A stretch of DNA of 42,406 nt, taken from NCBI GenBank assembly GCA_964511035.1, contig CAZEDP010000001.1, positions 1 through 42,406 of the forward strand, written 5' to 3'. Within the stretch, counting starts at the first letter, position 1. Each line of letters opens with the position of its first letter. This DNA comes from an uncultured Gammaproteobacteria bacterium (lineage in GTDB: Bacteria > Cyanobacteriota > Vampirovibrionia > Gastranaerophilales > CAZEDP01). Under the pieces are notes generated by a model, which had not been told where the DNA came from, searched no databases, and saw nothing but the letters and a program-made list of their open reading frames with translations. This document shows positions 1 to 36,243 of the stretch, one piece after another. The translations under genes and the position numbers were made by a program.

Positions 1-1707
1 ATTACAGGCCAGTGCATTAAACCTCCGGTATGTCCTCCTGTAACGCCACCGGTATGTCCGACAATTGCAGCTAAAGAATACGGATATATGACAGGCGACC
101 CTCATTTCAGAGGTGGCGACGGCGAATTGTACACAATAAAAGGAATATCAGGCAAAGTATACAGTATAGTTAAAGACAAAAAATTTGAATACGATGCAAA
201 ATTTGAAACTGTTAACTGTTGGGGAAACACAGGCGCAACAGGTTCAGCAGTTAAAGTTGGCAATACCTGCGGAACTAAAACCAGCATAATTTATTATGAT
301 AAAAAAGGATGCGCTAAACTTGTAAATGTTGTCAGCGGTAAATTAACCGAAACAACAATTCAAAGAGGCGTTACATATACACTCGCAGACGGCGGAACAG
401 TTAAATTTGGTCAGGCTTACGGCGGCGGATGCGACGGAAGCCAACTTGAAGAAAGACTTATCATCAAATCAGCAGAAGGTTATACATTAACACAAGTTGC
501 AAGATCAGGCGGATATATTGACAGCAACTTCGAAACAAGCTGTAAAGGTGTATATAGTGACTGCGTAATGCCTACCGGTTTACTTGGTGATACATTTGAT
601 GCCGGCTCTGCAAAAAGAGTAGCAACAAATGACATGGGCGGCGGAATCTTAAACAGCAGCCTCTGTTCTTATACATTAGGTACTGACCTAAAGACAGCTA
701 TTATGAAAGGCGTAACAATTACACCGACTTGCCCGCCTGCTGATCCTCCGGTATGTCCTCCTGTAAATCCACCGGTATGCCCACCGCCTGTAACACCTCC
801 TGTATGCCCACCACCAGTAACTCCGCCTGTATGCCCACCACCAGTAACTCCGCCTGTTTGCCCACCACCAGTAACTCCGCCTGTTTGCACTCCCAAAATA
901 GCAGTTAACGAATACGGCTACATGACAGGCGATCCTCATTTCAGAGGTGGTGACGGTGAATTATATACTATTACCGGCACATCAGGAAAAGTTTACAGTA
1001 TTGTTAAAGACAAAAATTTTGAATTCGACGCAAAATTTGAAAAATTAAACTGCTGGGGAACCACAGGTACAACAGGTTCGGCAGTTAAAGTCAGCAGCAG
1101 CTGCGGAAAATATACAAGCATAATTTATTATGATAAAACCGGATGCGCCAAACTTGTAAACATAGTTAACGGCAAAAAATGCGAAATAACAATTCAACGC
1201 GGTAAAGTATATCAGCTTGCTGACGGCGGATGTGTCAAATTCGGTCAGGCTTACGGCGGTGGAGCCGACGGCAGTCAGCTTGAAGAAAGACTTATTATTA
1301 AATCAAAAGAAGGCTATACTTTAAGTCAAGTTGCAAGAGCCGGCGGATATATCGACAGCAACTTCGAAACAGGATGCAAAGGCGTTTACAGTGACGGCGT
1401 CATGACATCCGGCTTATTAGGTGACACATTTGATGCAGGTTCTGCAAAAAGAGTCGCAACAGATAATATGGGCACCGGAATTTTAAACAGTTCTCTTTGC
1501 TCATACACATTAGGCACTGATTTAAAAGCAGCTATAATGAAAAACGTAGCACTTACAACAGGTTGTGGACTTTCAACAAGCGAAATTAACGGAATCATTC
1601 AGTATATGAGCGCATTTGATGCTAATTCCTCCGCATACTGCCAGTCAATTCAAACATGCGGTTCGGGACAGAACTTTGTATCTCTGTTCACAGGTGCAAC
1701 AGCATAG
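1..1707 (+). CDS. 5'-truncated multi-module protein: tandem VWD-like (GDPH-motif) modules joined by Pro/Cys-rich linkers, with a C-terminal tail
   Basis: Frame 1 is open from nt 1 (ITGQCIKPPVCPPVTPPVCPTIAAKEYGYMTGDPHF...). The ATG at 88 is therefore internal, and the gene starts upstream of the window. Two near-identical 219-aa modules occupy nt 76-732 and 910-1566. Each opens with GDPHFRGGDGELYTI.G.SGKVYSIVKDK and has GLLGDTFD about 160 aa later. These resemble the opening (GDPHY.TFDG..Y.F.G...Y.L..D) and closing (GLCGNFDG..DF) signatures of von Willebrand factor type D domains. Stop at 1705-1707, followed by a terminator hairpin. Confidence 0.8.
   Translation: MTGQCIKPPVCPPVTPPVCPTIAAKEYGYMTGDPHFRGGDGELYTIKGISGKVYSIVKDKKFEYDAKFETVNCWGNTGATGSAVKVGNTCGTKTSIIYYDKKGCAKLVNVVSGKLTETTIQRGVTYTLADGGTVKFGQAYGGGCDGSQLEERLIIKSAEGYTLTQVARSGGYIDSNFETSCKGVYSDCVMPTGLLGDTFDAGSAKRVATNDMGGGILNSSLCSYTLGTDLKTAIMKGVTITPTCPPADPPVCPPVNPPVCPPPVTPPVCPPPVTPPVCPPPVTPPVCPPPVTPPVCTPKIAVNEYGYMTGDPHFRGGDGELYTITGTSGKVYSIVKDKNFEFDAKFEKLNCWGTTGTTGSAVKVSSSCGKYTSIIYYDKTGCAKLVNIVNGKKCEITIQRGKVYQLADGGCVKFGQAYGGGADGSQLEERLIIKSKEGYTLSQVARAGGYIDSNFETGCKGVYSDGVMTSGLLGDTFDAGSAKRVATDNMGTGILNSSLCSYTLGTDLKAAIMKNVALTTGCGLSTSEINGIIQYMSAFDANSSAYCQSIQTCGSGQNFVSLFTGATA
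76..1566 (+). repeat. Two 657-nt direct repeats (76-732 and 910-1566) encoding modules A and B of the same protein
   Basis: By-eye alignment shows identical length and most nucleotide and amino-acid positions conserved. Example: gaatacggatatatgacaggcgaccctcatttcagaggtggcgacggcgaattg versus gaatacggctacatgacaggcgatcctcatttcagaggtggtgacggtgaatta. Confidence 0.85.
778..885 (+). repeat. In-frame 27-nt tandem repeat (4 units) encoding (CPPPVTPPV)n in the inter-module linker
   Basis: Units at 805-831, 832-858 and 859-885 read tgcccaccaccagtaactccgcctgt(a/t) and are near-perfect. The unit at 778-804 is degenerate. The wider Pro/Cys linker spans about 727-893 (TCPPADPPVCPPVNPPVCPPPVTPPVC...). Confidence 0.9.
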
Positions 1708-1740
1708 TCTGATATAACATAGAACCAATTAGTACAAAAA

Positions 1741-1767
1741 CTGAGGACAAAAGTCCTCAGTTTTTTA
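1741..1767 (+). terminator. Rho-independent terminator after the first VWD-like gene
   Basis: ctgaggac-aaaa-gtcctcag perfect 8-bp stem followed by ttttttt. Confidence 0.7.
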
Positions 1768-1927
1768 TTTCATTATCTAAATTAAACAGCAAGGTAATTG
1801 AATAACCTTACTGTTTTTTTTATATTTTAATAAATATGAAATTGTATTTATAAAAATCTTTCGAATTTTGCAGTCAATAGAGACAAATACACGGTAATTT
1901 CAGACAATTTTAAAAGGAGGAAAGGAA

Positions 1928-3310
1928 ATGAGTTACGGTCAATCAGCAAGCAGTTATTTGTCAAAATATATGTCATCGAGGTTATTTGGTTCAAGCAGCA
2001 CAGTAAATCAATCAAACACAGCAATCGGAGGAACTAACGTAAATCAAAACAACGTTGCTTTATTAACCAATGCCTTCTCAATTAACAGCCCTACCAATGT
2101 CAATCAGTCAAACATCTCTTTGGGAGGAGGAAATGTTAATCAGAATAACATAGCAGTGGTTAACGGTGGTGTCAGTATAGGAAGCCCAACTAACATTGGA
2201 CAATCTAATATTGCTATTGGAGCCGGCAATACAAATCAAAACAACATTGCATTGGTAAACAACGGCTTTTCAATCGGAAGTCCAACAAATATCGGACAAT
2301 CAAATATTTCTTTGGGAGGAGTGAATACCAATCAAAACAACATTGCTCTGGTAAACAACGGCTTTTCTTTATGCAGTCCGACAGATATTAATCAGAACAA
2401 CACGGCAATAGGCGGATGCAATACCAATCAAAATAACATTGCAATAGTAAATACCTGCACACCTTGTATTCCTTGTCCGCCTCCGCCGCCATGCAAACCT
2501 CCTGTTGCGCCTTGCGAATGGGGTTCTGTAACAGGTGACCCGCACTTTAGAGGCGGTGACGGAGAATCATACAATATTTATGCAGACGGTGGAACCGTCT
2601 TCAGTATAGTAAAAGACAAAAACTTCGACTACAATGCAAAATTCAACTACTGGGGCAACAACAGCGTAAGCGAATCCTCCGTAAGAGTTAAGAACGCAAT
2701 GGGCAATAAAACCAGCATTGTATATTACAAAGCTAACGGAACTGCTACGCTGGTAAATATCAACAACGGAGTAAAAACCGAGACAACTATTCAGCAGGGA
2801 CAAACTTACAACCTTGCTGACGGAGGAACTGTCAAATTCGGTTCCATAAAAGTCAATCCTAGTTCTTCAACAACTGAAACCAGGCTTATTGTAACATCAA
2901 GTGAAGGTTACACCCTATCTCAAAGAGCATATGGCAGCCATATTAACAGCACCTTCGAAACGAGTTCTAAAGGTACGGAATCTGACGGCGTAGCAACCAG
3001 CGGTCTGTTAGGAGATACCTTCGATCCGGATTCGGCAAAGAGAATTCCTACTGACAACAAAGGAACAGGTGTATTAAATAAAGCTCTCTCCGCATATGCT
3101 TTGGGAACAGACATAACTGCCATAGCAATGCAGGGTGTTAACACTACTGCTCAAACCGGATATGGTATGGATACAACCGGTATAAACGGTTTGATACAGA
3201 ATATGGGCTCATACGGAACAAACACAGGAAGCAGCTTCGGTTCATTCTTTAATACAGGATCCGGGCTTCAGAATTATCTTACATCCCTGTATTCCGGATA
3301 TGCCGCATAG
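1928..3310 (+). CDS. Asn/Gln-rich curlin-like repeat protein fused through a Pro/Cys linker to one Cys-free VWD-like (GDPH) module plus a C-terminal tail
   Basis: Strong RBS aaggaggaaaggaaATG. No hydrophobic signal peptide (MSYGQSASSYLSKYMSSRLFGSSS). Five 28-32-aa N/Q repeats are followed by the linker TPCIPCPPPPPCKPPVAPC. Then comes GDPHFRGGDGESYNIY...SIVKDK...GLLGDTFD, homologous to the modules of the upstream gene. Confidence 0.85.
   Translation: MSYGQSASSYLSKYMSSRLFGSSSTVNQSNTAIGGTNVNQNNVALLTNAFSINSPTNVNQSNISLGGGNVNQNNIAVVNGGVSIGSPTNIGQSNIAIGAGNTNQNNIALVNNGFSIGSPTNIGQSNISLGGVNTNQNNIALVNNGFSLCSPTDINQNNTAIGGCNTNQNNIAIVNTCTPCIPCPPPPPCKPPVAPCEWGSVTGDPHFRGGDGESYNIYADGGTVFSIVKDKNFDYNAKFNYWGNNSVSESSVRVKNAMGNKTSIVYYKANGTATLVNINNGVKTETTIQQGQTYNLADGGTVKFGSIKVNPSSSTTETRLIVTSSEGYTLSQRAYGSHINSTFETSSKGTESDGVATSGLLGDTFDPDSAKRIPTDNKGTGVLNKALSAYALGTDITAIAMQGVNTTAQTGYGMDTTGINGLIQNMGSYGTNTGSSFGSFFNTGSGLQNYLTSLYSGYAA
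1997..2458 (+). repeat. Five consecutive about 96-nt coding repeats (32-aa units, consensus SPTNIGQSNIAIGGGNTNQNNIALVNNGFSIG)
   Basis: Units start at nt 1997, 2087, 2183, 2279 and 2375. Units 3 and 4 are nearly identical at protein level. Confidence 0.85.
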
Positions 3311-3340: not shown

Positions 3341-3372
3341 AAAGCCACGGGAATTTATAACCGTGGCTTTTT
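3341..3372 (+). terminator. Rho-independent terminator after the second VWD-like gene
   Basis: aaagccacgg-(10-nt loop)-ccgtggcttt followed by a T-rich run. Confidence 0.7.
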
Positions 3373-3540: not shown

Positions 3541-3771
3541 ATGATTAACAACGTTATGAATATTTTAAACAGAACTTTATACCCTCAAAAATACACACCG
3601 CATACACCTTTAAAAACAAATTATTCAAGCAATCCGTTTGCGGAACCTTTTCAAGGTTCTAACAATTATAATAACTATGCAAAAAATAACCCTGTACAGG
3701 GGGGCATATTTGCAGGGTATTATAATGGCAAATCCAATATAGTAGGCTCAAAACTTTTCATTGAAGCCTAA
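3541..3771 (+). CDS. Hypothetical small N/Y/G-rich protein (76 aa)
   Basis: ORF preceded by gaggaaaatatATG. Composition is biased (GSNNYNNYAKNNPVQGGIFAGYYNGKSN). Its stop codon overlaps the stop of the convergent kinase gene (cTAa at 3768-3771). No recognisable domain. Confidence 0.3.
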   Translation: MINNVMNILNRTLYPQKYTPHTPLKTNYSSNPFAEPFQGSNNYNNYAKNNPVQGGIFAGYYNGKSNIVGSKLFIEA

Positions 3772-7269: not shown

Positions 7270-8121
7270 TTAAACTATGTTTTCAATATATCCGGCACCA
7301 AAACCGTTTGTTGCATTGTCATAGTAATTTGCAATGAATACGGAATCCTCATACAGGTTATTTGCTTCAATAAACAACGAATCATAAAATCCGTTTTGAT
7401 CAACGTCCTGAGATTCTGTAGTATATCCGCCTGTCCAGCCGGTCAAATTCAAAGTATCACAACCGCTTGTATCGTAAATAGTATCGTGACCGGAACCGTC
7501 AAAGTAACCTGTATAGGTATCATCGCCGTCTCTGCCTTCAAGCCAATCGTTCCCTGCATTTCCAATTAAAGTATTATTACCGCTGTTTCCGCCGATATTG
7601 TTATTTAGGTCGTTTCCTGTTCCGTTCAGGTTGGCAGAACCTGTCAATGTTAAATCTTCAACATTTGAGGGAAGTGTATAACTTATTGAAGATAATACAT
7701 GATCATGTCCTTCTTCGGGATTTTCATGAACACCGTCAAGAGCAATATCAACATAATAAGTATCATCGCCGGCTTCGCCGTACATCATGTCCTTATTTGA
7801 TCCGCCGTCAAGAATATCATTCCCTTCTCCGCCATACAAAGTGTCGTCGCCTGCATCTCCAAGAAGCCAATCATTGCCGTTTTCACCCCAAATAATATCA
7901 TTTGAGTTACCGCCTCTCAGATAGTCATTACCGTCACCGCCCCAAATAAAATCATTGCCGTCACCACCGTTTGCACGGTCATTACCGGCTCCGCAGTAAA
8001 TCAAATCAGCTTTATCGCCGCCGACAATATAATCGTCACCGTCAAACCCTTTAATCTTATTGGTCTCACCCATAATTCCAAAGAGTGTGTCATCACCATT
8101 CGTTCCTAAAATAAGTGCCAT
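7270..8121 (-). CDS. RTX (hemolysin-type) calcium-binding repeat protein, probable T1SS substrate
   Basis: Consecutive GG.G.D nonapeptides (GGDGNDFIWGGDGNDYLRGGNSNDIIWGENGNDWLLGDAGDDTLYGGEGNDILDGG). No signal peptide. Strong RBS aaggaggaaagtATG. Confidence 0.9.
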   Translation of the reverse strand: MALILGTNGDDTLFGIMGETNKIKGFDGDDYIVGGDKADLIYCGAGNDRANGGDGNDFIWGGDGNDYLRGGNSNDIIWGENGNDWLLGDAGDDTLYGGEGNDILDGGSNKDMMYGEAGDDTYYVDIALDGVHENPEEGHDHVLSSISYTLPSNVEDLTLTGSANLNGTGNDLNNNIGGNSGNNTLIGNAGNDWLEGRDGDDTYTGYFDGSGHDTIYDTSGCDTLNLTGWTGGYTTESQDVDQNGFYDSLFIEANNLYEDSVFIANYYDNATNGFGAGYIENIV

Positions 8122-8287
8122 ACTTTCCTCCTTTTGCCTTTCTTAATTTAAATAACCAACAAACAACTATTATTTATATAGTTATATACATGTTTGTTGT
8201 ATTTTATACTGAAAAAATCAATTTCTATATCACTAATAGAGTAAAATATTGTTATTAAAACTTGATTTATTTGTTGTATATTAATTC

Positions 8288-8323
8288 AAAATACTATTCT
8301 AATAAATTATCAGAATAGTATTT
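8288..8323 (-). terminator. AT-rich hairpin downstream of the second RTX gene
   Basis: aaatactattct-(11-nt loop)-agaatagtattt, a 12-bp stem. On the minus strand it is followed by a T-rich stretch. Confidence 0.5.
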
Positions 8324-8353
8324 TTATATTTTAAATTATTTAAACAATATTTA

Positions 8354-9214
8354 CTAAACGGGATAAATTATGCATTCAATAAAACCCGCACCGTTTCCGG
8401 CTGCAATCGTGTCATCATAATAATTTTGAATGAAGACTGTATCCAACGACGTAAGGTTTTCAATAAACAAAGCATCAAGAAATCCGTTACCGTTACTGTC
8501 AACACCCGTTGTATCAACGCAATTAGACCATCCGCACAAGTCAAGTATGTCCAGGCAGCCGCCTGCATCCTTTATTGTGTCATGACCGGAACCGTCAAAA
8601 TAACCCTTATAAATATCATTGCCTAAACCTCCAATCAGCGTGTCATCACCGCAGTTACCGACCAGTTGGTTATTTCCGGTATTGCCTTTTATAATATTAT
8701 CCAGTTCATTTCCCGTTCCTCTTGTATCTTCTGTTCCGATAAGATTCAAATTCTCGACATGAGATGGGAGAACAAAACTGACTGTCGAATTTACTTCATC
8801 GATACCTTGATCGGCTAGCTCGATTACTTTATCTGTTTTGGTTTCGACATAATAGATATCATTTCCTGTCCCTCCTTCCATTCTATCGGCTCCGTCAAAA
8901 CCGTCCAAAATATCATTTCCGGACTCGCCTCGCAATATATCGTTGCCTGCACCGCCGTTTAGCACGTCATTGCCGCAACCTCCCCATAATATATCGTTAC
9001 CGTCTCCTCCGTAAAGTTTGTCATCGCCGTCTTCACCATAAATGAAGTCATTTCCGCAATCGCCGTAAATATAATCGTTACCTGTACCTCCATATAATAA
9101 ATCACCTGTACCTGATCCTTCAATGATGTCATTTCCACCAAGTCCATAAATTCTGTCACCAAATAGCGTACCAACAAGATGATCGTCGCCGTTTGTTCCA
9201 TAGATAATAACCAT
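8354..9214 (-). CDS. RTX calcium-binding repeat protein, paralogue of 7270-8121
   Basis: GTGNDYIYGDCGNDFIYGEDGDDKLYGGDGNDILWGGCGNDVLNGGAGNDILRGESGNDILDG. It shares the C-terminal blocks GYFDGSGHDTI.D and F(I)(A/Q)NYYD...GAG(Y/F)IE with the neighbour. RBS gaggaggagaacaATG. Confidence 0.9.
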   Translation of the reverse strand: MVIIYGTNGDDHLVGTLFGDRIYGLGGNDIIEGSGTGDLLYGGTGNDYIYGDCGNDFIYGEDGDDKLYGGDGNDILWGGCGNDVLNGGAGNDILRGESGNDILDGFDGADRMEGGTGNDIYYVETKTDKVIELADQGIDEVNSTVSFVLPSHVENLNLIGTEDTRGTGNELDNIIKGNTGNNQLVGNCGDDTLIGGLGNDIYKGYFDGSGHDTIKDAGGCLDILDLCGWSNCVDTTGVDSNGNGFLDALFIENLTSLDTVFIQNYYDDTIAAGNGAGFIECIIYPV

Positions 9215-9598: not shown

Positions 9599-11086
9599 AT
9601 GAAAAAGCATCGGCAAAAATGTTTGTTATATAAGGCTGTAATTATTTTCACAGTATTTTTAGGAACTAATTGCACAGTTTTTTCTCAGGTACAAACCGAT
9701 GAGGCAAAGCCAAAATCGGATGAAAACATCCAACAAACCACAGATTTTATTCCCGCAGATTCAAATCAGTTTGCAGAAAATCAACTTGAAGCGCCTATAT
9801 TGTATTTAAAAAACCCAAATCCTGAAGAAGCTGTTGTGTTAAATCTTGAAACTATTATAGAGTTCCTGGAAGAACAAAATTTGGATATTAACCTTGCTCA
9901 ATCAAAAGTAAAACAGTCTAAAGACTATTACTGGGCTTCATATGCTCCGTTTTTACCTTCGTTTTCCGCACAGTTTTACGGGGAAAGAGTTCGCGGAAAG
10001 GACGTAATAATTTTAAACGAACCTGTTTCAACAGACAGAAATACTCTAAAGCCCGGATTGACCGGCGACTACAATTTCTCCCCGTCATTTAAACATGTCT
10101 TCAGAATAAAACTCATGAAAAGTCAGGTAAACAAATATAAAGACACTTATGACAGGACTTTTCAAACTGCACTTTACGATGCTGCCAAGCTCTACATAAA
10201 CTGGTACAAGAATTATATGGATATTGAGCAGGCAAAACAATCTTTGAAAGAAGCAGAAGAGCAACTCAAAGTTAATGAACTGAGGATGCAAAACGGTTTC
10301 GGGACTAGACTCGATGTTATGCAGTCTAAAGCCCTGCTTGCAGACAGAAAGAATGTTGTTTTAAATACAGAAAATCAAAAATCAGGTTCTGAAATCGATT
10401 TGATTACTTTATTAAACCTTCCGGTTATTTGCAAAATTCAGCCCGAAAAACTTTCCAATGAAGAAATCACATTTGATGAAAGTACTAAAGATATAAAAGA
10501 TCTTTTGAAAATTACCGAAACAAACAGAGCAGATGTAAAGGCGTTAAATGAAGAAATTAAAATGGCTAAATCTCAGCTGCTTTATTCGGTTGCAGATCTG
10601 GTACCGGATGTCCAGCTCAGATATACAGGTAAAAAAGTTGGTTCGTCAACCGGAGATTTAGACACCTATAAACAGGGTTCTTTATATATAAATCTTGATG
10701 TTCTCAAATATATGGGACTGGAGAAGTTTCAAAGCATTAAAGCTAACCGGGAAAAGATTACCGAAGCTGTGTTAAGCAAACAAAAAGCACTCAATGAAGC
10801 ATACAGCAAACTCTACAAAGTGCATAATGATTGCAGATATTACAAAGAGCAGCTTCAGGTTAATAAAGATAAACTGGCAGCAGCGGAAGAAGGATACAGG
10901 ATTGCTGATGCAAGGTACAAGGTGGGATTTGGCATAAACCTTGAAGTTATGCAATCCCTTACAGATTTGTCAAAAGCACGGCTGGAATATCAAAAATCCC
11001 TTTCTGACAGCAATACCGCTCAGATTGAACTTTTGTACCAACTGGGGATTTTAACTCCCGACAGAATCTTAGCCTCAGTAAAATAA
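9599..11086 (+). CDS. TolC-like outer-membrane efflux protein (T1SS outer-membrane factor)
   Basis: Signal peptide-like N-terminus (KAVIIFTVFLGTNCTVFSQ). Two-fold repeated coiled-coil-rich architecture with OEP-type blocks (LNLETIIEFLEEQNLDINLAQSKV... and NELRMQNGFGTRLDVMQSKALL; RYKVGFGINLEVMQSLTDL). Confidence 0.85.
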   Translation: MKKHRQKCLLYKAVIIFTVFLGTNCTVFSQVQTDEAKPKSDENIQQTTDFIPADSNQFAENQLEAPILYLKNPNPEEAVVLNLETIIEFLEEQNLDINLAQSKVKQSKDYYWASYAPFLPSFSAQFYGERVRGKDVIILNEPVSTDRNTLKPGLTGDYNFSPSFKHVFRIKLMKSQVNKYKDTYDRTFQTALYDAAKLYINWYKNYMDIEQAKQSLKEAEEQLKVNELRMQNGFGTRLDVMQSKALLADRKNVVLNTENQKSGSEIDLITLLNLPVICKIQPEKLSNEEITFDESTKDIKDLLKITETNRADVKALNEEIKMAKSQLLYSVADLVPDVQLRYTGKKVGSSTGDLDTYKQGSLYINLDVLKYMGLEKFQSIKANREKITEAVLSKQKALNEAYSKLYKVHNDCRYYKEQLQVNKDKLAAAEEGYRIADARYKVGFGINLEVMQSLTDLSKARLEYQKSLSDSNTAQIELLYQLGILTPDRILASVK

Positions 11087-11101: not shown

Positions 11102-12382
11102 TCACTGCCTTGTTGAGGGTTCTTTAAACGCTTTTTCTACATTTTCTGAAATCGGCTCTGTAATGAAGCTAAGGATGTTTTTATCTCGTGTGATGAAATC
11201 AGCCATTACAGTCATACCGGATTTAATATAATGCCCATTACCTCGTCGGTTAGTAAGAAAAATTGTATCAGGTTTAACCCTGACCATATAATAGGGTCTG
11301 TTATTTTCATCGATCATAGTTGACGGAGAAACGGATAACACCTTTCCAGTCATTTTCCCGAATTGCTGATAGGGCAGGGCATCCATCCTTAATATAACTT
11401 TCTGGTCAGGTTTAATATAACTTAAATCCTTGTTACCGACTTTGATTTCAGCAACCAATCCGGCTCCTTCGGGTACTATCGTCATCAAAGTATCGCCCAT
11501 AGCAACTGTTTCACCCGGATTTCTAATAATTAAGTCATTAACATATCCGTTCGAAGGTGCAATAATACGCTGGCGTTTGGAGCTTAATCTGGCTTGTTGA
11601 ACCTGTGTAGCTATTTGAGCTATATCTCTTTGATGCCCCGAAAGCTTTTCAAGAATGTCCCTCTGATAACTCCCTGAAATTTTTCCAACAGCACGTTGAG
11701 ATTGGAGCAGTTCCATTTCTTTAGCTTTCAGTTCTTCAGAAGAAGAAGCTACAGTACCTCGCAAATCAATTACCCTTTGTTCATAATTTCTCAAATCTTT
11801 CTCTGATAATCCGCCTTGTTCGTATAAATTGTTATATGAACTCAATTGTTCTTCGCCTTTTTGAAGAAGATTTTGATTCTTTAATAATTCTTCTTTTACT
11901 TGCCCATATTCGTGTTTTAACCTTGTCATATTCATTTTTGCAGCTTCAATATCATTTTGATATTCATTTTGAGCTGCTCTTAGCCATGCTGAAGACACAC
12001 TTCCATCTGAGTATGCCTTTTTATTGGCATATGCCATTCTCAAGGCATTAGACTCCTGCATGAGTAAATTTAACTGTTGAGAGACACCTCTCTGTTCAAT
12101 AAGCGTCATCTCCGGATCAAGCTCAACCAGCACTTGTCCTTTTTTAACTTCCTGATCGGGCTTTACATACACTCTATAAACAATGCCGTTATAAGGCGAA
12201 GTAACTTTGTTCAGTCTTCCGTCAGGCATAATCTGTCCAACACCTGGGACAGCTTCATCCATTCTTCCGAACCATCCCCAGATTAATAAACCTGTAACAG
12301 TGATAAACAAGGCTAAAAGAAAAGAAAGTGAAATATAAAAACTTCTTGTTTTTTGAAATTGAGTTTGTCTTTCGTCAATCAT
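11102..12382 (-). CDS. HlyD-family membrane fusion protein (T1SS periplasmic adaptor)
   Basis: A single N-terminal TM (FYISLSFLLALFITVTGLLIWGWFG). Lipoyl-like hairpin (VTSPYNGIVYRVYVKPDQEVKKGQVLVELD ... IIAPSNGYVNDLIIRNPGETVAMGDTLMTIVP) flanking a long coiled coil. Confidence 0.9.
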   Translation of the reverse strand: MIDERQTQFQKTRSFYISLSFLLALFITVTGLLIWGWFGRMDEAVPGVGQIMPDGRLNKVTSPYNGIVYRVYVKPDQEVKKGQVLVELDPEMTLIEQRGVSQQLNLLMQESNALRMAYANKKAYSDGSVSSAWLRAAQNEYQNDIEAAKMNMTRLKHEYGQVKEELLKNQNLLQKGEEQLSSYNNLYEQGGLSEKDLRNYEQRVIDLRGTVASSSEELKAKEMELLQSQRAVGKISGSYQRDILEKLSGHQRDIAQIATQVQQARLSSKRQRIIAPSNGYVNDLIIRNPGETVAMGDTLMTIVPEGAGLVAEIKVGNKDLSYIKPDQKVILRMDALPYQQFGKMTGKVLSVSPSTMIDENNRPYYMVRVKPDTIFLTNRRGNGHYIKSGMTVMADFITRDKNILSFITEPISENVEKAFKEPSTRQ

Positions 12383-12425: not shown

Positions 12426-14936
12426 TTACTTATAAACCCCCTGCTGAATGCTGTAAAGATGATAATAATAACCCTTTGATGAAATCAAGTCCGAGTATTT
12501 ACCTTCTTCTGCAACAAATCCTTCATTCAATACAACAATTCTATCTGACCATTGATGTGCAGGCAAAAAGTCCGTCACAAATATGCAGGTTTTATGCTTG
12601 TACCTTTCCAATAAATACTTAAATATTGACATTTGTTCGTTAAAATCAAGAGTATTTAAAGTTTCATCAATAATTAAAATATCGGGATTTGTTATCAGAA
12701 CTCTGGCTAAGGCTATTTTTGCAGCTTGACCTCCTGAAATATTAAGTCCCCCCGAAATCAAATTAGTATTAAGTCCGTTTGGAAGTTTTGAAATAAAGCT
12801 GTCAAGTTTTGCAAGAGAAACAGCATTTAAAAGATTTTCCATTGATGAATCGGGAGTACTGAGCATAATATTTTCTTTAATCGTCCCCGAGAAAATAGCC
12901 GGACGCTGAATAACTGTTCCAACGGAATATCTGAGTAATTCATGATCAATTGTTTGTATATTATACCCGTCTATGGAAATTTCCCCCGATACAGGCTTAT
13001 ATAATCCCTGAAGAAGCCTTATCAATGTGCTTTTACCGGAACCGCTTTTGCCTGTTAAAACAATCTTCTCACCTTGTTTGATACTGAGGTTTACGTTATT
13101 CAATATAAAATTAGAATCCTGAGAATAACGGAAATAAACATCCGAAAATTCTATATCTCCCTTTATGTTTCTCAGAAATATGCCTCTTCCTTCGTCTTCT
13201 GAAGGTAATGCAATTGTGTAAAGGTTCTTCAATTCCTGTCTTAGAGGCATAGTTTCCTGAAAAAGCTGGAAAGAGGTCAGCATTCTCTGAAAAGATCCGA
13301 TGAAATTCCTCCCCATCATACTTATAGCAAGATATACACCGTATGTAGTATGCCCCATAAGAACTTCGTAAGCACCGAAATATAATGTTGCAAGATAACC
13401 GAGGCTGCCCACCGTTCCCAGTAAATTGCCCCCTGAAATATTGCTGAATCTCGACATAAAATCTTTTTCAACGTATTCGTTAACATTTTTTCCGATGGAA
13501 TTCATCATAGTCCATTCAGCACTGACTGATTTAACGGTTTCTATATTAGATACCGCTTCCTGAAGCTTAATCTGGCTGTTTCGCTGATTCTTGCCCGACT
13601 GCATCAATCTGGCTTTTTGCATAGGCATAATAAAGAAGACTATCAATGCAATGGGAATAATAGGAGAAAGTGAAATAAAGGCAAGTTTTACATTTAACAT
13701 GAACAAAATTACAACCATAATAAGCGACAAACCAAGATCCAATGATGAAAGCAGTGTTGTGTATGCATACGCATAATTGATTTTTGAAATTTCCGCAAAT
13801 TTTTCAATGTGGTTTTTAATATCACCAGATACTGTATCCAGTGGCAGCGCAAAAATTCTCTTAAGAAAACTTTTGAAACTCAATTTATCTATGTTTTCGA
13901 GAAAATTCGCCAATACAAACGACCTGACAGATTTGACCGCTATATCAAATGTCAAAATCATAATCATACCGACAGACATAACATCCAGAGCCGAAATATT
14001 TTGTCGTCCGAATACTCGGTCAAATATGACGATATAAAATATCGGCATACCAAGAGCAAACAGCTGAATTAAGAAGGATGCTATTACCATTTGTAGCGTT
14101 ATATCAGCATTTCGTTTGTAAAGATTCATATACCAAAGGGTACTAAAGGGTTCTTCTTGTTCAACAACATCGCTTCTAGGTGCTCTTTCAATTTTTAAAA
14201 GATTAAGTTTTTCATTTGGTGAAACATCTTCAGGCAAAAATCTTTCGTTTGTTAACCCCTCAATCAGCGCATTTCCTTTTCTGCCGGTAATCCATATTAA
14301 CCCGCCGTCTTTGTTTTCAAGAACAAACGGAAAATTTGTATTTAACAGCTGTTTCCATTCAACTTTTCTGGAAACAGCTCTGAAATCTAAATCTTTAAGA
14401 AGACTTCTCAAATCTTCAAGACTTTCTATCGGACAGTTGTGATTTTTGTTCGGAAATTTGTAGTACTCAAAAAGCGCATCCAGAATATCAGATGGGTTAA
14501 ATGAACCGGAAAGTCCGGTTGATGTTGATTCAAAACCTTCATTATTTAGAAATGGGACTTTTTCTCTTTGATTATTTGTATTTCTGAGTTCATCAAGTTT
14601 ATTTAAATAAAAATCGTATGCTCTTTTTAAGTCCTCACGTTTCAAAACTTCATCCAACAGAATTTCAAAGATAACTGTTGCTTCTGATGCAAGATATTTA
14701 TAATCATCAACCGTAAAATCCCATAATTCGCCTTCGTTTATAAAAGAAACCGTGTAGTCTCCTTCGTCAGAAGGTTTAAGGATTCTAATCTTACCGGACT
14801 TAATAAAACAAATTCTGTCAGAAGCTCCTTCAAAGCCGCTAATTCTTTTACCCGGCGAAAATTTGAATTCCGTACTGTCCGAAAATAAATAGTCCGGACT
14901 GCCAACAGAAACATTTCTTAAACCATTATCCACCAT
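12426..14936 (-). CDS. T1SS ABC exporter: N-terminal cyclic-nucleotide-binding-like domain, degenerate C39-like domain, 6-TM domain and ATPase
   Basis: Walker A GKSGSGKST, Q-loop VIQRP, signature ISGGQAAKIALAR, Walker B ILIIDE. The N-terminus has a CAP-like pattern (FKFSPGKRISGFEGASDRICFIKSGKIRIL...FINEGELWDF...ASEATVIFEI). The following roughly 110 aa align to a C39 peptidase fold but lack the catalytic Cys and His, as in the HlyB C39-like domain. Confidence 0.9.
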   Translation of the reverse strand: MVDNGLRNVSVGSPDYLFSDSTEFKFSPGKRISGFEGASDRICFIKSGKIRILKPSDEGDYTVSFINEGELWDFTVDDYKYLASEATVIFEILLDEVLKREDLKRAYDFYLNKLDELRNTNNQREKVPFLNNEGFESTSTGLSGSFNPSDILDALFEYYKFPNKNHNCPIESLEDLRSLLKDLDFRAVSRKVEWKQLLNTNFPFVLENKDGGLIWITGRKGNALIEGLTNERFLPEDVSPNEKLNLLKIERAPRSDVVEQEEPFSTLWYMNLYKRNADITLQMVIASFLIQLFALGMPIFYIVIFDRVFGRQNISALDVMSVGMIMILTFDIAVKSVRSFVLANFLENIDKLSFKSFLKRIFALPLDTVSGDIKNHIEKFAEISKINYAYAYTTLLSSLDLGLSLIMVVILFMLNVKLAFISLSPIIPIALIVFFIMPMQKARLMQSGKNQRNSQIKLQEAVSNIETVKSVSAEWTMMNSIGKNVNEYVEKDFMSRFSNISGGNLLGTVGSLGYLATLYFGAYEVLMGHTTYGVYLAISMMGRNFIGSFQRMLTSFQLFQETMPLRQELKNLYTIALPSEDEGRGIFLRNIKGDIEFSDVYFRYSQDSNFILNNVNLSIKQGEKIVLTGKSGSGKSTLIRLLQGLYKPVSGEISIDGYNIQTIDHELLRYSVGTVIQRPAIFSGTIKENIMLSTPDSSMENLLNAVSLAKLDSFISKLPNGLNTNLISGGLNISGGQAAKIALARVLITNPDILIIDETLNTLDFNEQMSIFKYLLERYKHKTCIFVTDFLPAHQWSDRIVVLNEGFVAEEGKYSDLISSKGYYYHLYSIQQGVYK

Positions 14937-19630: not shown

Positions 19631-19987
19631 TTAGATAATTTTTTCAACTGCCTCAATAATTTCCTCAGGAACAAACGGTTTTACAATATAGCCTGATATA
19701 CCGGATTTTACGGCTTCTTCTCTGTGATAATGCTGTCCCATTGAAGTACAAACAATGATTTTTGCATCCGCATTAAGCTCAATTATCTGCCTTACTACTT
19801 CCAAACCGCTTAATTCAGGCATAATAACATCAACTATCAACAGATCCGGTCTTAATTTTTCATACAGTTCAATAGCTTTAAAACCGTCATCAGCTTCCCC
19901 TACGACATCATACCCTGATTTGGTTAGAGTCCTCCTGAGAAAATTTCTCATTGTTGAAGAGTCATCGGCAACTAATATTTTTTTCAT
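19631..19987 (-). CDS. CheY-like single-domain response regulator
   Basis: MKKILVADDS...DLLIVDVIMPELSGLEV...TS....K are receiver-domain signatures. The start could instead be 20011 (longest ORF). Confidence 0.85.
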   Translation of the reverse strand: MKKILVADDSSTMRNFLRRTLTKSGYDVVGEADDGFKAIELYEKLRPDLLIVDVIMPELSGLEVVRQIIELNADAKIIVCTSMGQHYHREEAVKSGISGYIVKPFVPEEIIEAVEKII

Positions 19988-20087
19988 ACTCTGGAATTTC
20001 TCATAAAACAAAAGTTGAAATTAACATACAGTTAATTATATCCGTTAATGAATATTGAGTATATAGTTCGTATTTCGTATAAAAAAT

Positions 20088-23000
20088 TTAAGGATTCAGT
20101 AATCCTTGTATATATTTTTTCATGGATTGTATAAGCGAAGAACACAGCGCTTTATCTTCATTTTTACCTGCTGTTTCAAGCTCTGTTGAATATTCCGTTA
20201 ATTTTTGAATCCTTAAATTTGCGCTTGAGCCTTTCAAAAAATGAGCAACTGAATGAATGGTTTTGAAATCATCGGTTTTTTCTGCATTTTCCAGTTTTTC
20301 AATATTTTCAGGGAGAATTGCCAAATAATCATTTAAGAGATTTTGTGCGTCAATCCTCTGGAAACCATGAGCATCCATAATAATCTGCACCATGTCTTTG
20401 CTATCCTGAAGAGCTTCTTTATTCTGTTCTATGTCGGCAACAGCTTCAATATGTGCAAAACCGGAATATTTCTTTATTAATTCAATAAGTTTTTTAGAAT
20501 CTATCGGTTTAGACAAATAATCATCCATTCCGGAATCCAAGCAGCTTTGAATGTCTACTTCTAAAACATTTGCAGTCAATGCAATAATAGGAATATGTTT
20601 CGGTTTTTTCCCGTCGGATTTTTGTGTTTTTTCATACTCTCTAATGGAACGTGATGCTTCAAATCCGTCCATAATAGGCATTTGACAATCCATAAGTATA
20701 AGATCATATGATTTCTTTTTGTATGCTTCAACTGCAGCCTGTCCATCTCCAGCAATATCGCAATTAAATCCGGCCATATTCAACAGTTTTACCGCGAGTT
20801 TCTGGTTAACTTCGTTGTCTTCGGCAAGAAGAATTTTGATTTTAGTATTATATTTGTATTCTTTAATTGTATGCTTAGTAACAAGAATATCGCTTGCTAT
20901 TTCGTGAATATTATCTTTTGCTTCCAAAGTCAACAGGACACAGTTTAATAAATCTTTTTTCTTCACCGGTTTAGTTAAATAGCCTGAGAATCCGCATTTT
21001 TTGGCAACAGCAGAATCCCCTCTGCGAGCCAGTGAAGTGAGTAAAATTAGAGAAACGTTTCTGGTTAATTCATTGGATTTAATAAGTTTGGCCAGCTCAA
21101 AACCATCTTTGTCCGGCATGTTAAAATCGAGGATTGCAACGCTAAAGCCCTTCTCAACGCTTAGAACTTCCATAGCTTCATCAGCAGAAGTGGCTTCAAA
21201 AACGACACATCCGTTTTCTTCAAGGTAATAGCGTATTATTTTCAAATTTGTCGGATTATCATCAACTATAAGAATTTTTGAACCTTTTAATGATTTTTGA
21301 TATTTAACAGTATTAACATCGGCAGATTTGCCGCATTTCGCAAACTGTGCAGTAAATGAGAATGTAGAACCTTCTCCCAGTTTGCTGGTCAATGATATTT
21401 TTCCGTTCATCATTTCGACAATTTTTTTGGAAATTGTTAATCCAAGCCCGGTACCGCCAAATTTTCTGGTTGCCGATGCATCTGCTTGTGTAAATGCTTC
21501 AAATATTTTTTCTTTTGCGCTGTCAGAAATTCCAATGCCGGTGTCTTTTACGTCAAAATTAACAGTAACCGTATCTTTATCTTCAGAAACCAATTTAACG
21601 GTAATACTAATTTCGCCTGTTTTAGTGAATTTAACCGCATTACTGACAAGATTGTTTAATACCTGCTTTAACCTAATCGGATCACCGCTTACTTTCTGAG
21701 GTACATCGGAATAAATCAAAGCATTGATTTCTATTCCCTTTTGAGTTGCGGCATAAATTGACAAAACAGCAACATCTTCAACCGTAGAAGGAAGGTCAAA
21801 AATTATTTTTTCCATCATCATTTTACCCGCTTCCATTTTAGAAACGTCTAAAATGTCATTTATTATGCTTAATAAGGCTTCCGAAGATTTTTTGGCTTCA
21901 TTAATAAATTCAGTTTGCTCTGCATCAATTTTAGTCTCAGACAACAGTTGCAAGAAACCTATAACACCGTTCATAGGAGTTCGTATTTCGTGACTCATAT
22001 TAGCCAAAAATTCGCTTTTTGACCTGTTTGCTGCTTCAGCTAAATCTCTTGCAGCAATTATAGCTTCTTCGTTTTTCTTTCGTTTTGTAATATCACGCGC
22101 AATTCCTGTTATGCCGGCGAGATTGCCAAATTGGTCATAAATAGGAGTTTTGATAACTTCATACCAAATTTTATGCTCCTTGGCAGGAATCTGCACTTCT
22201 TCATACCAAGGTTTCTTTGATTTCATTACATCCGAATCGTTTTCCCAAAAAATCTTAGCCGGCGAGTCGGTTTTTATTTCTGTTTCGAGTTTCCCCACAA
22301 TTTGTTTTTCTTGCATATTCATACTTTTAAGGAAATTTTGATTAACAGCTATAAATACTCCATTTTCATCTTTCAGCCAAGCTGAATACGGCAAATTATC
22401 AAGTATAGCCTGTAGTTGAGCCTTTCCTTCAAGAAGCTTGTCAATTACGGGACTGGATATAGTTTCTGATACTTTAAATGCGATAAAACAACCAAAAGCC
22501 ATTATTGCCGTTATTACCATAACCATTAAATAAGTCATATTGTTCATCTCGGAAAGTATTTCCGAGACAGGCGCACTTATAAGAAGAATAAAACCGTTAG
22601 GAAGAGTTGTAAACGATACTATTTTCTTTATCCCTTCATCGTTATATTCAACAAAACCGTTTTTCTGAAAGATTAACGGCATTACCAAAAATTTATAAAA
22701 CCCGTCTCTTGTTAGAAGAAGATTATCACCTGTTTTGTATATATCTCCCGCAATAAAATTGTATTTTGCATCTATAATAAATGCGTCTGTGGTCTTGTAA
22801 ATGCGAATATCTTTTAACCTTTTGTTCAACTCATCCAGAGTTATATCCATACCGGCAACGCCTATTAAATTTCCGTTTCTATAAAAAGGTACGGAATATG
22901 TAATCATATCAATTTTAAGACTGGTATCAAAATAAGGTTTACTCCAAACACCCCCCTTATCAATAACAGGTTGAAAATACCACGGATCATCCTGTGAATT

Positions 23001-23456
23001 ATAAATTAAATTAGTAATCTTTCTTTTAAAATTCCCATCTTCCTTAACAAACCAAGCTCCGTCATAATAACCGGCATAATCTAGATTGTAGTAAAAATAT
23101 GCCCCCACACACATATTAGTATTATCACCCAGTTTTTTCGGTATATTCCTGATTTTTGAATATGTTTTTTCAAGATTAGAAAAGCTTTTTAATTTTTTTA
23201 AATCATTTGTACTGTTGATTGAACTCACATCAAGTACAAAACTCCCCAAAAGATTTACGTTTTTCTCAACCTGTTTAAGTTCATTGTAAATTTCCTTGGA
23301 AATATTAGCAGCATTTACAGTGAGCATTTTTTTCGCCATGGTTGAAATGATTCGTTCACTGGAAAAAATGCTGATATACCCGATTATCAAAACCGTAAAA
23401 AAGAGTGTAGCCGATATACTAAGAATTATGCTTAATTTTAAAGAATTTGAATTCAT
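20088..23456 (-). CDS. Hybrid sensor histidine kinase: TM, Cache-like periplasmic domain, TM, PAS, HisKA, HATPase_c, REC, REC, HPt
   Basis: Two hydrophobic segments bracket an extracytoplasmic region of about 270 aa. H-box [15 protein letters not shown]; N-box [10 protein letters not shown]; G-boxes DTGIGI and GGTGLGL. Two receivers ([10 protein letters not shown]...[10 protein letters not shown]; [11 protein letters not shown]...[10 protein letters not shown]). C-terminal HPt ([14 protein letters not shown]). Confidence 0.9.
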
Positions 23457-23494
23457 CTATTATACGATTCTTTCATTTTAACGGCAGACCAAAC

Positions 23495-23896
23495 TTAGGA
23501 TTCTTCTATGAGACCAAATTCAATCAATTTTGCTACCAGACTGTCTTTATCAATGGGTTTGACCAGATACCCCTCACACTGTTCTCTAAAAGCGTGGCGA
23601 ATATTTTCAGAATCACCTAAAGCTGTTGTCATTATTATTTTTACACTGTCACTGCCGTAAATATTAAATTCTTCTTCAATTTCCCTGATGGTTTTAAGAA
23701 CGTCATGTCCATTACACTCCGGCATCATAATATCTAGAGTTATTACATCATATGGAGAATTGTCTTCAATAGAAGCCTTAAATGCTTCAATAGCCTCCTG
23801 CCCGTTTACTGCAATATGACACTCGCCATACTTAGACAAATATGCCTGCAAAATCCTTCTGCAAGTGAAATCATCGTCAACAATTAAACTTCTCAT
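23495..23896 (-). CDS. CheY-like single-domain response regulator
   Basis: MRSLIVDDD...VITLDIMMPECNGHDV...TTALGD...YLVKP. Confidence 0.9.
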   Translation of the reverse strand: MRSLIVDDDFTCRRILQAYLSKYGECHIAVNGQEAIEAFKASIEDNSPYDVITLDIMMPECNGHDVLKTIREIEEEFNIYGSDSVKIIMTTALGDSENIRHAFREQCEGYLVKPIDKDSLVAKLIEFGLIEES

Positions 23897-23974
23897 CTTG
23901 TGTATCTCCTGTTCAGCTTATTATTACTTCAATATTATACTTATTCAAATATATCGTCCTTACAATTGTGTTAA

Positions 23975-26560
23975 TCAGGTGTTAAATAAGTTTTCAACAT
24001 CCAAGACCAGACAGGGCTCATCATCTTCCAAAATTGAAATTCCCGCAACAAAATCCAACTTTATAAAATCTTCTTCCTGAGGTTTTACAAGCACTTTTTT
24101 GTTTTCAATAATCTTTTTAGCAGGTAGAGCCTTAATCTCACCGTTAAATTCCAATAAAATAACTATTTCATTTTCTGATTCATAATTTTCTGTTCCCAAA
24201 AAATCAGAAATGTAAACGGTAGGGATTATTTCATCATTTAAAACAAATTGCGGATATCTGTTTAGTTCTTTGCTCCAATTGTCGTCAGTCGGATTTAAAA
24301 CCTGTTTAATATTTACTAAAGGGATTATATAAATAGTACCCTGAATGTCAGTGACAGCACCGTTGATGACTGCATTATCCGTGGGTATTATCATGGTAAA
24401 TGTTGATCCTTCATTAAGCTTTGACTTAATACTTATCTCTCCGTTCATTTTTTGTATTTCAGTTTTGACTACATCCATCCCAACCCCTCTGCCTGAAACA
24501 CTGTCAACCGACTCAGCTGTGGTAAAACCGGGGTTAAAAATAAACTCAATAATTTCATTTTCACTATAATTTCTATCGGTAGTAACCAAATTCTTCTGAA
24601 CTGCTTTTTTGTAAATTTTATCTGTATCCAGCCCCTTTCCGTCATCAACAACATTAATAATAATCTTCCCGTTTTTGCTGTATGCAGAAACTTTGATATT
24701 TCCTGTCGGTGATTTTCCAAGGTTTTTGCGAACCTCAGAATTTTCGATTCCGTGCGCTACAGCATTTCTGACAATATGAATCAACGGATCCAAAATTTTA
24801 TCGGCAACCTGCCTGTCTATTTCAATATCCTCACCGGACAGCGAGAAATTAATCTCCTTTTTAAGTTCAAACATTGTATCTTCAGCAATACGTTTGATTT
24901 TCTGGAAAGCAGACTCAAGCGAAACTGTTTTTATGGTTATGGCTATATCTTTCAGAATCTTTAATTTCCTCGTCAGAGCCTTTATATTATTATAAAGAAC
25001 GCCCGACGAACTGCATTGAAATGCTTCTTTATCAATACATGCTTGAATTTTAATAATCTCGTCGATATTTTCAGAGAGTTTTTCAATTTTATTTTTTGGA
25101 ATCCTAACCGCATCAAATGAATAACGTTCTTTAGAATTTTCATTAACATTAATAGAGTCTGACTCTTCTTTGAAATTCAAATTTTCTTTCATTAATTTAT
25201 TATAGTTATCTCTTTGAACTTCAAGTTTTTTTTCTGTTTCATTATTATTGGGTTGCATCTCATCAGCCGATGCTTGAATATCTTCCAATAGTTTAAGATG
25301 TTCATTAATCATATTAAGGAAAGATTGGTTCCTGTTTAAAGAAATATCACTGCATATTTGCCGTATGCAATCAGTTGAACTTAAAATAACGTCTATCAAA
25401 GTATTATTAATTTTAATAGCACCTTTCATACAGCCATCAAGGACAGTTTCGGTTTTATGTGCTATTTCCTGAATTAAATTTTGATTAACGAAACCTGCTA
25501 AACCTTTAATTGTATGGAAAGCCCTGAAAATGGCATTTATTACTTTGAGATTGGTTGCATCCCTTTCAATATGCTGAACGTTTGCTTCTATTGCCTCAAT
25601 ATGCTCTTTTGTTTCCGAAATAAAATCCTGCCAAAACTCATTATCAATGGTAAATTCCTTTTTGAAATTCGAAACTTTCATACTCTCAAGATGATTAAGT
25701 ATTTTGTTTAAGAAACTTTCATCTTTAATCAGGCTAAAATCATCACATATACCTCTTATAAAAGATACTGAGTTATAGATGAGCGCAATAATTTTATCGT
25801 TTATTGCAATTTCATCTCGCCGGCATGCTTCTAAAAGAACTTCCAGCTCGTAAGAAATTCTTTTTATCAGCATCTGCCCAGAATAACCGGCAATTCCGTT
25901 TATAGTATGGACTGCCCTATATACGCTGTTCAATATCTTTTTATCAGGATTTTTGCTCAGCTGTTCAGTTTTTTGCTCAATAACCTTTAAATCTTCTTCA
26001 ATTTCAGGCTTAAATTCCAGCAACAATTCACAGTTAATTTTATACGTTAAATATTCTTTATCTTTAACTATTACCTCGTCTTCACAGCCGTCCTGATAAA
26101 TAACATCGTCAATTTCCTTAAGATGATTAAAGATTCCGTTAGTAAATTCATCATTTGCATTCAAAGAAATATCGTTACAGATTTTTCTTATTAGCCTCGT
26201 AGAAGTTTTGATTAAAGAAATTGTTTCTTTATCAGTTGGAACAACAGATTCATTGCAGGATACCATTAAAGTTTCAGTCTGATGAGCAATTTTTTGAATG
26301 GTATATTGACCGACCAAACTGGAAGAACCTTTTATATTGTGATAATAACGAAACATTTCATTAAAAATATCAAGTATAGCTTGTTCATTACCTATATTAT
26401 CTTCCAGTAATTTTATATTCTCATCAATTAAATCCAGATTTTCCAATGCCTTAGAAACAAATTCAGGTAAAAACTCCTCAAAATCAGGAGTTTTGCAGTT
26501 TGCAAAATCCGCTTCCTCCAGAATTTTCTTAAGCAATTCATCTACATTAATATTATCCAA
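23975..26560 (-). CDS. cheA: CheA-type histidine kinase with three N-terminal HPt (P1) domains and a C-terminal CheW-like domain
   Basis: Three HPt motifs (FRYYHNIKGSSSLVG; YRAVHTINGIAGYSG; FRAFHTIKGLAGFVN). CheA catalytic core DPLIHIVRNAVAHGIE...DDGKGLD...PGFTTAESVDSVSGRGVGMDVVKTEIQKMNGEISIKSKLNEGSTFTMIIP. A CheW-like tail follows. Confidence 0.9.
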   Translation of the reverse strand: MDNINVDELLKKILEEADFANCKTPDFEEFLPEFVSKALENLDLIDENIKLLEDNIGNEQAILDIFNEMFRYYHNIKGSSSLVGQYTIQKIAHQTETLMVSCNESVVPTDKETISLIKTSTRLIRKICNDISLNANDEFTNGIFNHLKEIDDVIYQDGCEDEVIVKDKEYLTYKINCELLLEFKPEIEEDLKVIEQKTEQLSKNPDKKILNSVYRAVHTINGIAGYSGQMLIKRISYELEVLLEACRRDEIAINDKIIALIYNSVSFIRGICDDFSLIKDESFLNKILNHLESMKVSNFKKEFTIDNEFWQDFISETKEHIEAIEANVQHIERDATNLKVINAIFRAFHTIKGLAGFVNQNLIQEIAHKTETVLDGCMKGAIKINNTLIDVILSSTDCIRQICSDISLNRNQSFLNMINEHLKLLEDIQASADEMQPNNNETEKKLEVQRDNYNKLMKENLNFKEESDSINVNENSKERYSFDAVRIPKNKIEKLSENIDEIIKIQACIDKEAFQCSSSGVLYNNIKALTRKLKILKDIAITIKTVSLESAFQKIKRIAEDTMFELKKEINFSLSGEDIEIDRQVADKILDPLIHIVRNAVAHGIENSEVRKNLGKSPTGNIKVSAYSKNGKIIINVVDDGKGLDTDKIYKKAVQKNLVTTDRNYSENEIIEFIFNPGFTTAESVDSVSGRGVGMDVVKTEIQKMNGEISIKSKLNEGSTFTMIIPTDNAVINGAVTDIQGTIYIIPLVNIKQVLNPTDDNWSKELNRYPQFVLNDEIIPTVYISDFLGTENYESENEIVILLEFNGEIKALPAKKIIENKKVLVKPQEEDFIKLDFVAGISILEDDEPCLVLDVENLFNT

Positions 26561-36231: not shown

Positions 36232-36243
36232 AGGAAAAATAGA

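Follow-up and report, generated by a model that had tools for sequence, protein, structure and literature searches.

What are the proteins encoded at the very start of contig CAZEDP010000001.1 (assembly GCA_964511035.1), from an uncultured bacterium labelled Gammaproteobacteria, and what could they be doing with repeated modules that recall the type D domain of von Willebrand factor (VWD)? The window analysed here is the whole stretch from position 1 to 42,406 of that contig, forward strand, and its first 3,310 nucleotides hold two adjacent genes, called gene 1 and gene 2 below. A preliminary description, made from the letters alone, had seen in them VWD-like modules strung on Pro/Cys linkers in a mucin-like layout. 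The results of this work show that the modules are VWD-type domains from a bacterial branch within the von Willebrand D superfamily, an assignment that is well supported by family-level profiles, a structure model, fold searches and the conservation of the GDPH motif. They also suggest that genes 1 and 2 would encode exported, self-processing surface or matrix proteins with VWD/MIIA-type modules; for this reading, in which cleavage, export and role are all deduced by comparison, we put the probability at about 0.6. The features of the two genes are as follows.

1..1707, plus strand: gene 1, lacking its 5′ end; an open frame (frame 1) runs from nucleotide 1 to the stop at 1705-1707 (568 codons plus stop)
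64..729, plus strand: VWD-like module 1 (hidden Markov model (HMM) core 61-681), with GDPH at 94-105 and GLLGDTFD at 577-600; 7 Cys; isoelectric point (pI) 8.1
721..897, plus strand: Pro/Cys hinge of gene 1, TPTCPPADPPVCPPVNPPVC, then PPPVTPPVC four times, then TPK; 59 amino acids (aa), of which 30 Pro and 7 Cys
898..1563, plus strand: VWD-like module 2 (HMM core 895-1515), with GDPH at 928-939 and GLLGDTFD at 1411-1434
1564..1704, plus strand: C-terminal tail of gene 1, 47 aa, ...SEINGIIQYMSAF...GSGQNFVSLFTGATA, read from the sequence
1736..1765, plus strand: intrinsic terminator between the genes, a 13-bp stem followed by a T-run
1928..3310, plus strand: gene 2, 460 aa, with AGGAGG 8 nt upstream of its ATG
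1997..2455, plus strand: 32-aa repeat rich in Asn/Gln, present five times, N(V/I)(N/G)QSNI(S/A)(L/I)GGxN(V/T)NQNNIA(L/V)VNxG(F/V)SIGSPT; Asn is 24% of residues
2456..2515, plus strand: Cys/Pro linker of gene 2, CTPCIPCPPPPPCKPPVAPC
2504..3172, plus strand: VWD-like module 3, in gene 2 (HMM core 2501-3106), with GDPH at 2534-2545 and GLLGDTFD at 3002-3025; no Cys in the fold; pI 5.4
3173..3307, plus strand: tail of gene 2, 45 aa, ...TGINGLIQNMGSY...GSGLQNYLTSLYSGYAA
3342..3372, plus strand: terminator-like hairpin 3′ of gene 2, AAGCCACGG, a 10-nt loop, CCGTGGCTT, then TTT; read directly

The family HMM, run against the six-frame translation, finds exactly three modules in the 42 kb, with E-values from 2e-65 to 7e-61. 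Their spans in the list combine the HMM core with a C-terminal extension and are approximate; they fall close to the 76-732, 910-1566 and 2516-3160 at which the preliminary description had placed three homologous modules of about 215 aa. Modules 1 and 2 are 79% identical, and modules 1 and 3 55%. Both motifs that it had noticed, some 160 aa apart, were located in all three modules, the distance from GDPH to GLLGDTFD being 161 aa in gene 1 and 156 aa in gene 2, and the Pro/Cys linkers it described are real, one of them being a 27-nt tandem repeat. Seven cysteines and a pI of 8.1 characterize each of the gene 1 modules. The GDPH motif lies in the first strands of the domain, is invariant in two of our alignments (A1 and A3), where xxxDG follows it, and is kept among homologues: 120 of the 130 domain copies of the family have it, its loss being confined to a few extra copies in multi-domain relatives.

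The evidence for VWD membership comes from the family rather than from the window modules taken one by one. Scans of the latter against Pfam and NCBIfam return noise only (e.g., FmdA, Torus, CsgH), a single-sequence search of the PDB gives only PTX3 at E 0.09, and a word-indexed search finds only six relatives. When the close-clade profile is run exhaustively with HMMER, it gathers at least 427 protein clusters, counted by their representatives, at E<=1e-3. Among 101 relatives scanned, 43 match the Pfam VWD family (PF00094) and nine match DUF1521 (PF07481); the PF00094 gathering cutoff of 22.9 bits is exceeded by P0125 (34.0) and P0203 (30.7), and the close-clade profile matches P0125 at E ~1e-13. 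When the nine-sequence close clade is aligned to the VWD-positive relatives with hhalign, the probability is 99.5% and E is 2.8e-23. A family profile of 39 sequences, searched against the PDB, finds FCGBP at 5.6e-24 and MUC5B at 7e-4, as well as MUC5AC and MUC2, and its alignment to FCGBP places GDPH on GDPH, one alignment spanning 113 profile positions.

The predicted structure points the same way. The AlphaFold2 model of module 1, built from the 39-sequence alignment, reaches a predicted local-distance difference test (pLDDT) of 94 and a predicted template-modelling score (pTM) of 0.90, and supersedes an earlier run with nine sequences (pLDDT 70, GDPH region unmodelled). Its best 25 PDB matches in Foldseek are all D assemblies of MUC5AC, MUC2, MUC5B or VWF, with probability 1.0, E from 1e-6 to 3e-4 and a TM-score of about 0.55 over 212-219 columns, so that the fold search proposed in the preliminary description came out in favor of its VWD reading, which is right at the level of the family and superfamily. 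The modules share with eukaryotic VWD domains (PF00094: VWF, MUC2/5AC/5B, FCGBP, RGM) the beta-sandwich fold and an aligned GDPH(F/Y)xxxDG opening, and Asp-Pro autocleavage is documented for that fold (PMC8267560, PMC10880436). The closing motif is a matter of proposal: GLLGDTFD would correspond to the eukaryotic GLCGNFNG, with no residue-level alignment reaching it, as the Pfam VWD matches in relatives cover model positions 2-127 of 156 only and the 212-219 Foldseek columns come without residue mapping. In contrast to eukaryotic VWD proteins, those of the window are prokaryotic, lack C8/TIL/E partners, the conserved VWD disulfides and an endoplasmic-reticulum or Sec signal, and have no direct Pfam match.

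There is also a second kinship. DUF1521 is the MIIA domain found in the type III secretion system (T3SS) effectors NopE1 and NopE2 of Bradyrhizobium and in VIC_001052 of Vibrio coralliilyticus (PMC6506597), and upon binding of Ca2+ it undergoes self-cleavage behind the GDPH Asp, i.e., at the GD/PH bond (PMC6506597, PMC9185962). Autocleavage at GD/PH has been described both for MIIA/NopE (PMC6506597, PMC8367979) and for VWD domains (PMC8267560, PMC10880436). MdcE is a further T3SS effector named with DUF1521/MIIA (PF07481). NopE1 is said, in work of Wenzel et al. from 2010, to carry two GD/PH modules. Both Pfam families meet in the relatives of the window modules: one and the same segment matches PF00094 and PF07481 in P0215, P0140 and P0115, P0137 scores 27.6 bits against a PF07481 cutoff of 23.6 and is matched by the close-clade profile at 4.3e-13, and hhalign joins the close clade to the DUF1521-positive relatives with 99.4% probability (E 1.8e-21, 190 columns). 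Since DUF1521/MIIA of NopE1/NopE2 and VIC_001052 belongs to the same family, a characterised prokaryotic relative does exist, where the preliminary description had known of no characterised prokaryotic system. The window modules resemble MIIA in being bacterial, in the missing signal peptide and in having GD/PH at the start of a domain of ~170-200 aa. They differ from the MIIA effectors in that Asn/Gln repeats and PPVCPP hinges are joined to them, in having no T3SS nearby, and in composition: the relatives linked to a T3SS have next to no Cys and are acidic (pI 4.0-4.8), whereas the gene 1 modules are Cys-rich with pI 8.1 and that of gene 2 has pI 5.4. A mucin paper, where it refers to GDPH proteins ‘without vWD domains’, cites NopE1 among others (PMC8267560), and a search of an open-access library of papers returned none naming DUF1521 together with von Willebrand. 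Given this, the shared segments and the 99% hhalign link, the MIIA domain itself may be an unrecognised VWD fold. A tblastn search of plasmids, with a DUF1521-type relative as query, gave one unannotated Paracoccus match.

Gene 1 reads as Cys/Pro linker, module 1, PPVCPP hinge, module 2 and tail, and holds 27 Cys in total. Its beginning is outside the window: the syntenic, 91% identical orthologue on the nearest contig (L002:9782-11605, 607 aa) aligns its residue 55 to the first residue of the window, leaving ~54 N-terminal codons to be deduced from orthologues. Both this protein and P0013 (573 aa), which is more distant, start with MT...; repeats rich in Asn/Gln occupy the next 30-60 aa, a CPPV linker comes after them, and two modules only follow, which does away with the additional upstream module that had been proposed. 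The hinge DNA is a 27-nt tandem repeat (763-888, 4.7 copies by Tandem Repeats Finder) that encodes PPPVTPPVC. The number of these units is four in the window and two in L015, although the contigs are near-identical, and the pattern in L002 differs again; either the strains differ in length here or repeats collapsed in assembly. The window, L015 (2-1576) and L016 (2-1339) are three independent assemblies, all of which end within gene 1, probably because of its 79%-identical modules and 27-nt repeat, so that the lack of a 5′ end is likely to be an artefact of assembly and not biology. The tail of gene 1 is homologous to that of gene 2, is conserved in P0013 and L002 and has no Pfam match, and it is a candidate signal for secretion or anchoring; nor has the gene 2 tail any credible Pfam match. 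Between the genes, the strong terminator at 1736-1765 and the AGGAGG before the ATG of gene 2 make them separate transcription units. The pair is conserved in related metagenome-assembled genomes (MAGs; L002, L015-L017 and L018), and neither protein has a Sec signal peptide.

Gene 2, for which no in-frame start is possible upstream of its ATG, has orthologues in P0008, P0009 and P0010, and the L002 orthologue is 92% identical. Its residues 1-176 are Asn/Gln-rich and include the five 32-aa repeats, whose DNA has a period of 96 (Tandem Repeats Finder); the linker following them reads CTPCIPCPPPPPC. No Pfam or PDB match was found for the repeat region, and a homologue search for it came back empty but failed to return even the region's own cluster, so that it is uninformative. 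A curli (CsgA) identity was tried and rejected, Curlin_rpt giving no match at E<=10 and BLASTP with a CsgA query giving E=19. One could guess at a beta-solenoid or amyloid-like fold. The hairpin at 3342-3372 was missed by our terminator scan, which limits loops to 8 nt.

How such proteins could work depends on how they leave the cell, and the only export system visible in the window is a type I secretion system (T1SS) encoded ~6-11 kb downstream of the VWD-like genes, conserved as a set in L002 and L015 and partly in L016:

7270-8121, minus strand: small RTX protein
8354-9214, minus strand: small RTX protein
9599-11086: TolC-like outer-membrane efflux protein (OEP)
11102-12382, minus strand: HlyD
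12426-14936, minus strand: ATP-binding cassette (ABC) exporter, 836 aa, with an N-terminal extension of ~280 aa that gives only a faint hint of a cyclic-nucleotide (cNMP)-binding domain

The proteins would be exported without a Sec signal, this T1SS being the only candidate route in the window. Outside, each module would fold into the VWD sandwich, possibly aided by Ca2+, and the fold would strain the Asp-Pro bond of GDPH until the Asp side chain attacked its own carbonyl and the chain broke between D and P. The gene 1 product would fall into three fragments and that of gene 2 into two. At the end of the N-terminal ones, which have the Asn/Gln-rich repeats and Cys/Pro hinge, there would be an Asp anhydride, to be hydrolysed or captured by a nucleophile; linking through such an anhydride has precedents in ITIH and in the analogous but non-homologous self-processing module (SPM) of FrpC (PMC8267560, PMC7078468). 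The evenly spaced hinge cysteines could then form inter-chain disulfides, and what results would be a surface or matrix protein that has processed itself and is perhaps cross-linked. It might serve in a matrix or a sheath, or as an adhesin.

Several observations weigh against this reading. Neither the window modules nor the whole proteins match Pfam VWD or RGM_C even at E<=10, the check that the preliminary description had proposed first, and the Pfam scan of the modules gives no PF07481 match either. Their non-acidic, Cys-rich composition means that the Ca2+ dependence of MIIA may not transfer to them, and some GDPH-bearing VWD domains stay uncleaved, e.g., recombinant MUC2 D4 (PMC10880436). 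As to export, genes 1 and 2 carry no recognisable secretion motif, their linkage to the T1SS is one of proximity only, and the close clade has no conserved neighbourhood in L001, L003 and L004, nor conserved secretion neighbours.

The proteins could instead be NopE-like effectors, translocated by a T3SS or another contact-dependent route into a eukaryotic or prey cell, where host Ca2+ would trigger self-cleavage and release active fragments. The relatives P0203, P0182 and P0195 do lie inside injectisome (T3SS) clusters, P0195 in the complete genome of Paracoccus sediminicola, the function of NopE1 and NopE2 in plants requires autocleavage (PMC8367979), and the N-termini of the family are Ser/Thr/Asn-rich and, among those inspected, without a Sec leader. 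Gene 1 also has two GD/PH modules, the number reported for NopE1. Yet the 42-kb window and the syntenic L002 contain no T3SS gene, the 27 Cys of gene 1 and its near-neutral modules are unlike the Cys-free, acidic T3SS-linked relatives, and the Asn/Gln repeats and PPVCPP hinges look structural, all of which makes the effector role unlikely. The proteins could also, much as in the preliminary description, form a purely structural, mucin-like or matrix polymer, here cross-linked by disulfides, in which GDPH is a signature of the fold and is never cleaved. The regular spacing of the hinge cysteines and the 7 Cys of each gene 1 module would suit it, and so would relatives found near polysaccharide genes (P0001, which adjoins the bcs cellulose operon in L001, and P0137, near GH8 and Bac_transf genes). 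However, each protein has one or two modules only and lacks the C8/TIL/CK domains of polymerisation and Pro/Thr/Ser (PTS) tracts, Cys is absent from the interior of the gene 2 module, and GDPH is conserved well beyond what the fold needs; we therefore regard this too as improbable.

Lastly, the proteins might never leave the cytoplasm and form, for instance, an inclusion or storage structure, the missing signal peptide then being without meaning. This would account for the lack of any recognisable secretion motif, but the high Cys content and the Pro/Cys hinges suit an oxidising compartment, and every relative that is characterised or has an informative context is exported (by T3SS, or with RTX repeats, dockerin or cadherin-type domains), so that a cytoplasmic location seems very improbable indeed. 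Exported, self-processing surface or matrix proteins thus remain the reading that we prefer.

The wider family offers varied contexts. Some relatives carry dockerin or cadherin-type domains, the one in L007 bears, besides its GDPH module, T1SS-type RTX repeats at the C-terminus, and Vampirovibrio-type members adjoin SpoIID with no secretion genes nearby; in L003 and L004 the neighbours are unrelated genes. Variable repeats upstream of the cut site recur, as Asn/Gln, AYAQG or GSGDD repeats, which fits a cargo region in front of a self-cleaving module. A T3SS-associated role conserved in the injectisome-linked subfamily is suggested. In L012, L013, L014 and L019 the VWD/DUF1521-type gene occupies the same injectisome slot, adjoining sctU (Bac_export_2), in three unrelated Pseudomonadota contexts, and in L012/L013 and L019 a T3SS_needle_E-like gene stands on its other side.

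The close clade comes from uncultured MAGs labelled Gammaproteobacteria, Gastranaerophilales or Cyanobacteriota. L002 is labelled Gammaproteobacteria, and the other organism-labelled close-clade homologues are Gastranaerophilales. The gene order efp-accB-accC at L002 268-2768 is one that we take to recall Cyanobacteriota or Melainabacteria, and the taxonomic label may be wrong.

The rest of the window holds the following genes near or beyond the VWD-like pair.

3541-3771, plus strand: 76-aa open reading frame (ORF), Asn/Tyr-rich, with a GAGG ribosome-binding site; no signal peptide and no Pfam match; found at the same position in L015-L017
3768-4394, minus strand: ORF of ~200 aa with HATPase_c only, without HisKA or a sensor part; TTG start; relatives are 190-199 aa long
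19631-26953, minus strand: chemotaxis-like cluster, with a CheA-type kinase (three Hpt stretches plus CheW) and three single receiver proteins
29431-42247: surface-polysaccharide cluster, with a phosphoenolpyruvate (PEP) mutase-cytidylyltransferase fusion at 36244-37545

To the chemotaxis-like cluster also belongs a hybrid Cache/PAS kinase of 1122 aa with two receiver domains and Hpt. Besides the fusion, the polysaccharide cluster contains a thiamine-pyrophosphate (TPP) enzyme similar to phosphonopyruvate decarboxylase, an iron-dependent alcohol dehydrogenase (Fe-ADH), a CDP-glycerol glycerophosphotransferase, RgpF, GT2, GT11, a flippase and dTDP-rhamnose genes, which suggests a phosphonate-decorated glycan. 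HemolysinCabind, the family of the RTX GGxGxD repeats, is present in the neighbours at 7270-9214 and has no match in genes 1 and 2, and an Rfam scan of the window gave no match.

In spite of the likeness to gel-forming mucins, which also carry VWD modules on Pro-rich, Cys-bearing linkers, the mucin-like layout of the preliminary description does not hold in a strict sense. Gene 1 has just two modules and gene 2 a single one, the Pfam scan of both genes finds no C8, TIL or E domains, and the PTS/O-glycosylation tracts, the cystine knot (CK) and the D assemblies of mucins are missing, the linkers being 20-59 aa long. A parallel in chemistry is the FrpC-type SPM, where Ca2+ induces folding outside the cell and Asp-Pro cleavage proceeds through an Asp anhydride able to form covalent links (PMC7078468, PMC7846742). 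It has a novel fold of its own (PDB 6SJW; PMC7078468), which is not among the Foldseek matches listed for module 1, and is an analogue of the window modules, not a homologue. It is tempting to speculate about a ‘clip-and-link’ scheme, in which the anhydride-ended fragment would be grafted onto surface polysaccharide or neighbouring subunits while the hinge cysteines cross-link the chains into a covalently netted, mucin-like matrix, and in which MIIA, published as disordered and EF-hand-like, would really be a VWD sandwich. As a whole this scheme is quite unlikely.

In conclusion, the window clade represents a divergent form, with an undescribed architecture, of a known self-cleaving domain family, in which repeats rich in Asn/Gln and Cys/Pro hinges are combined with modules that are Cys-rich and neutral to basic. 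VWD domains are usually regarded as an extracellular invention of animals, and here the VWD fold and profile space takes in 427 or more bacterial clusters, among them the MIIA/NopE domain, which is amenable to biochemistry. How and why the GDPH bond of VWD domains cleaves is still debated (PMC10880436). The small, single-domain bacterial versions, some of them free of disulfides like the gene 2 module, could be simple models of the cleavage mechanism, and could also serve as engineering parts in the manner of NeissLock.

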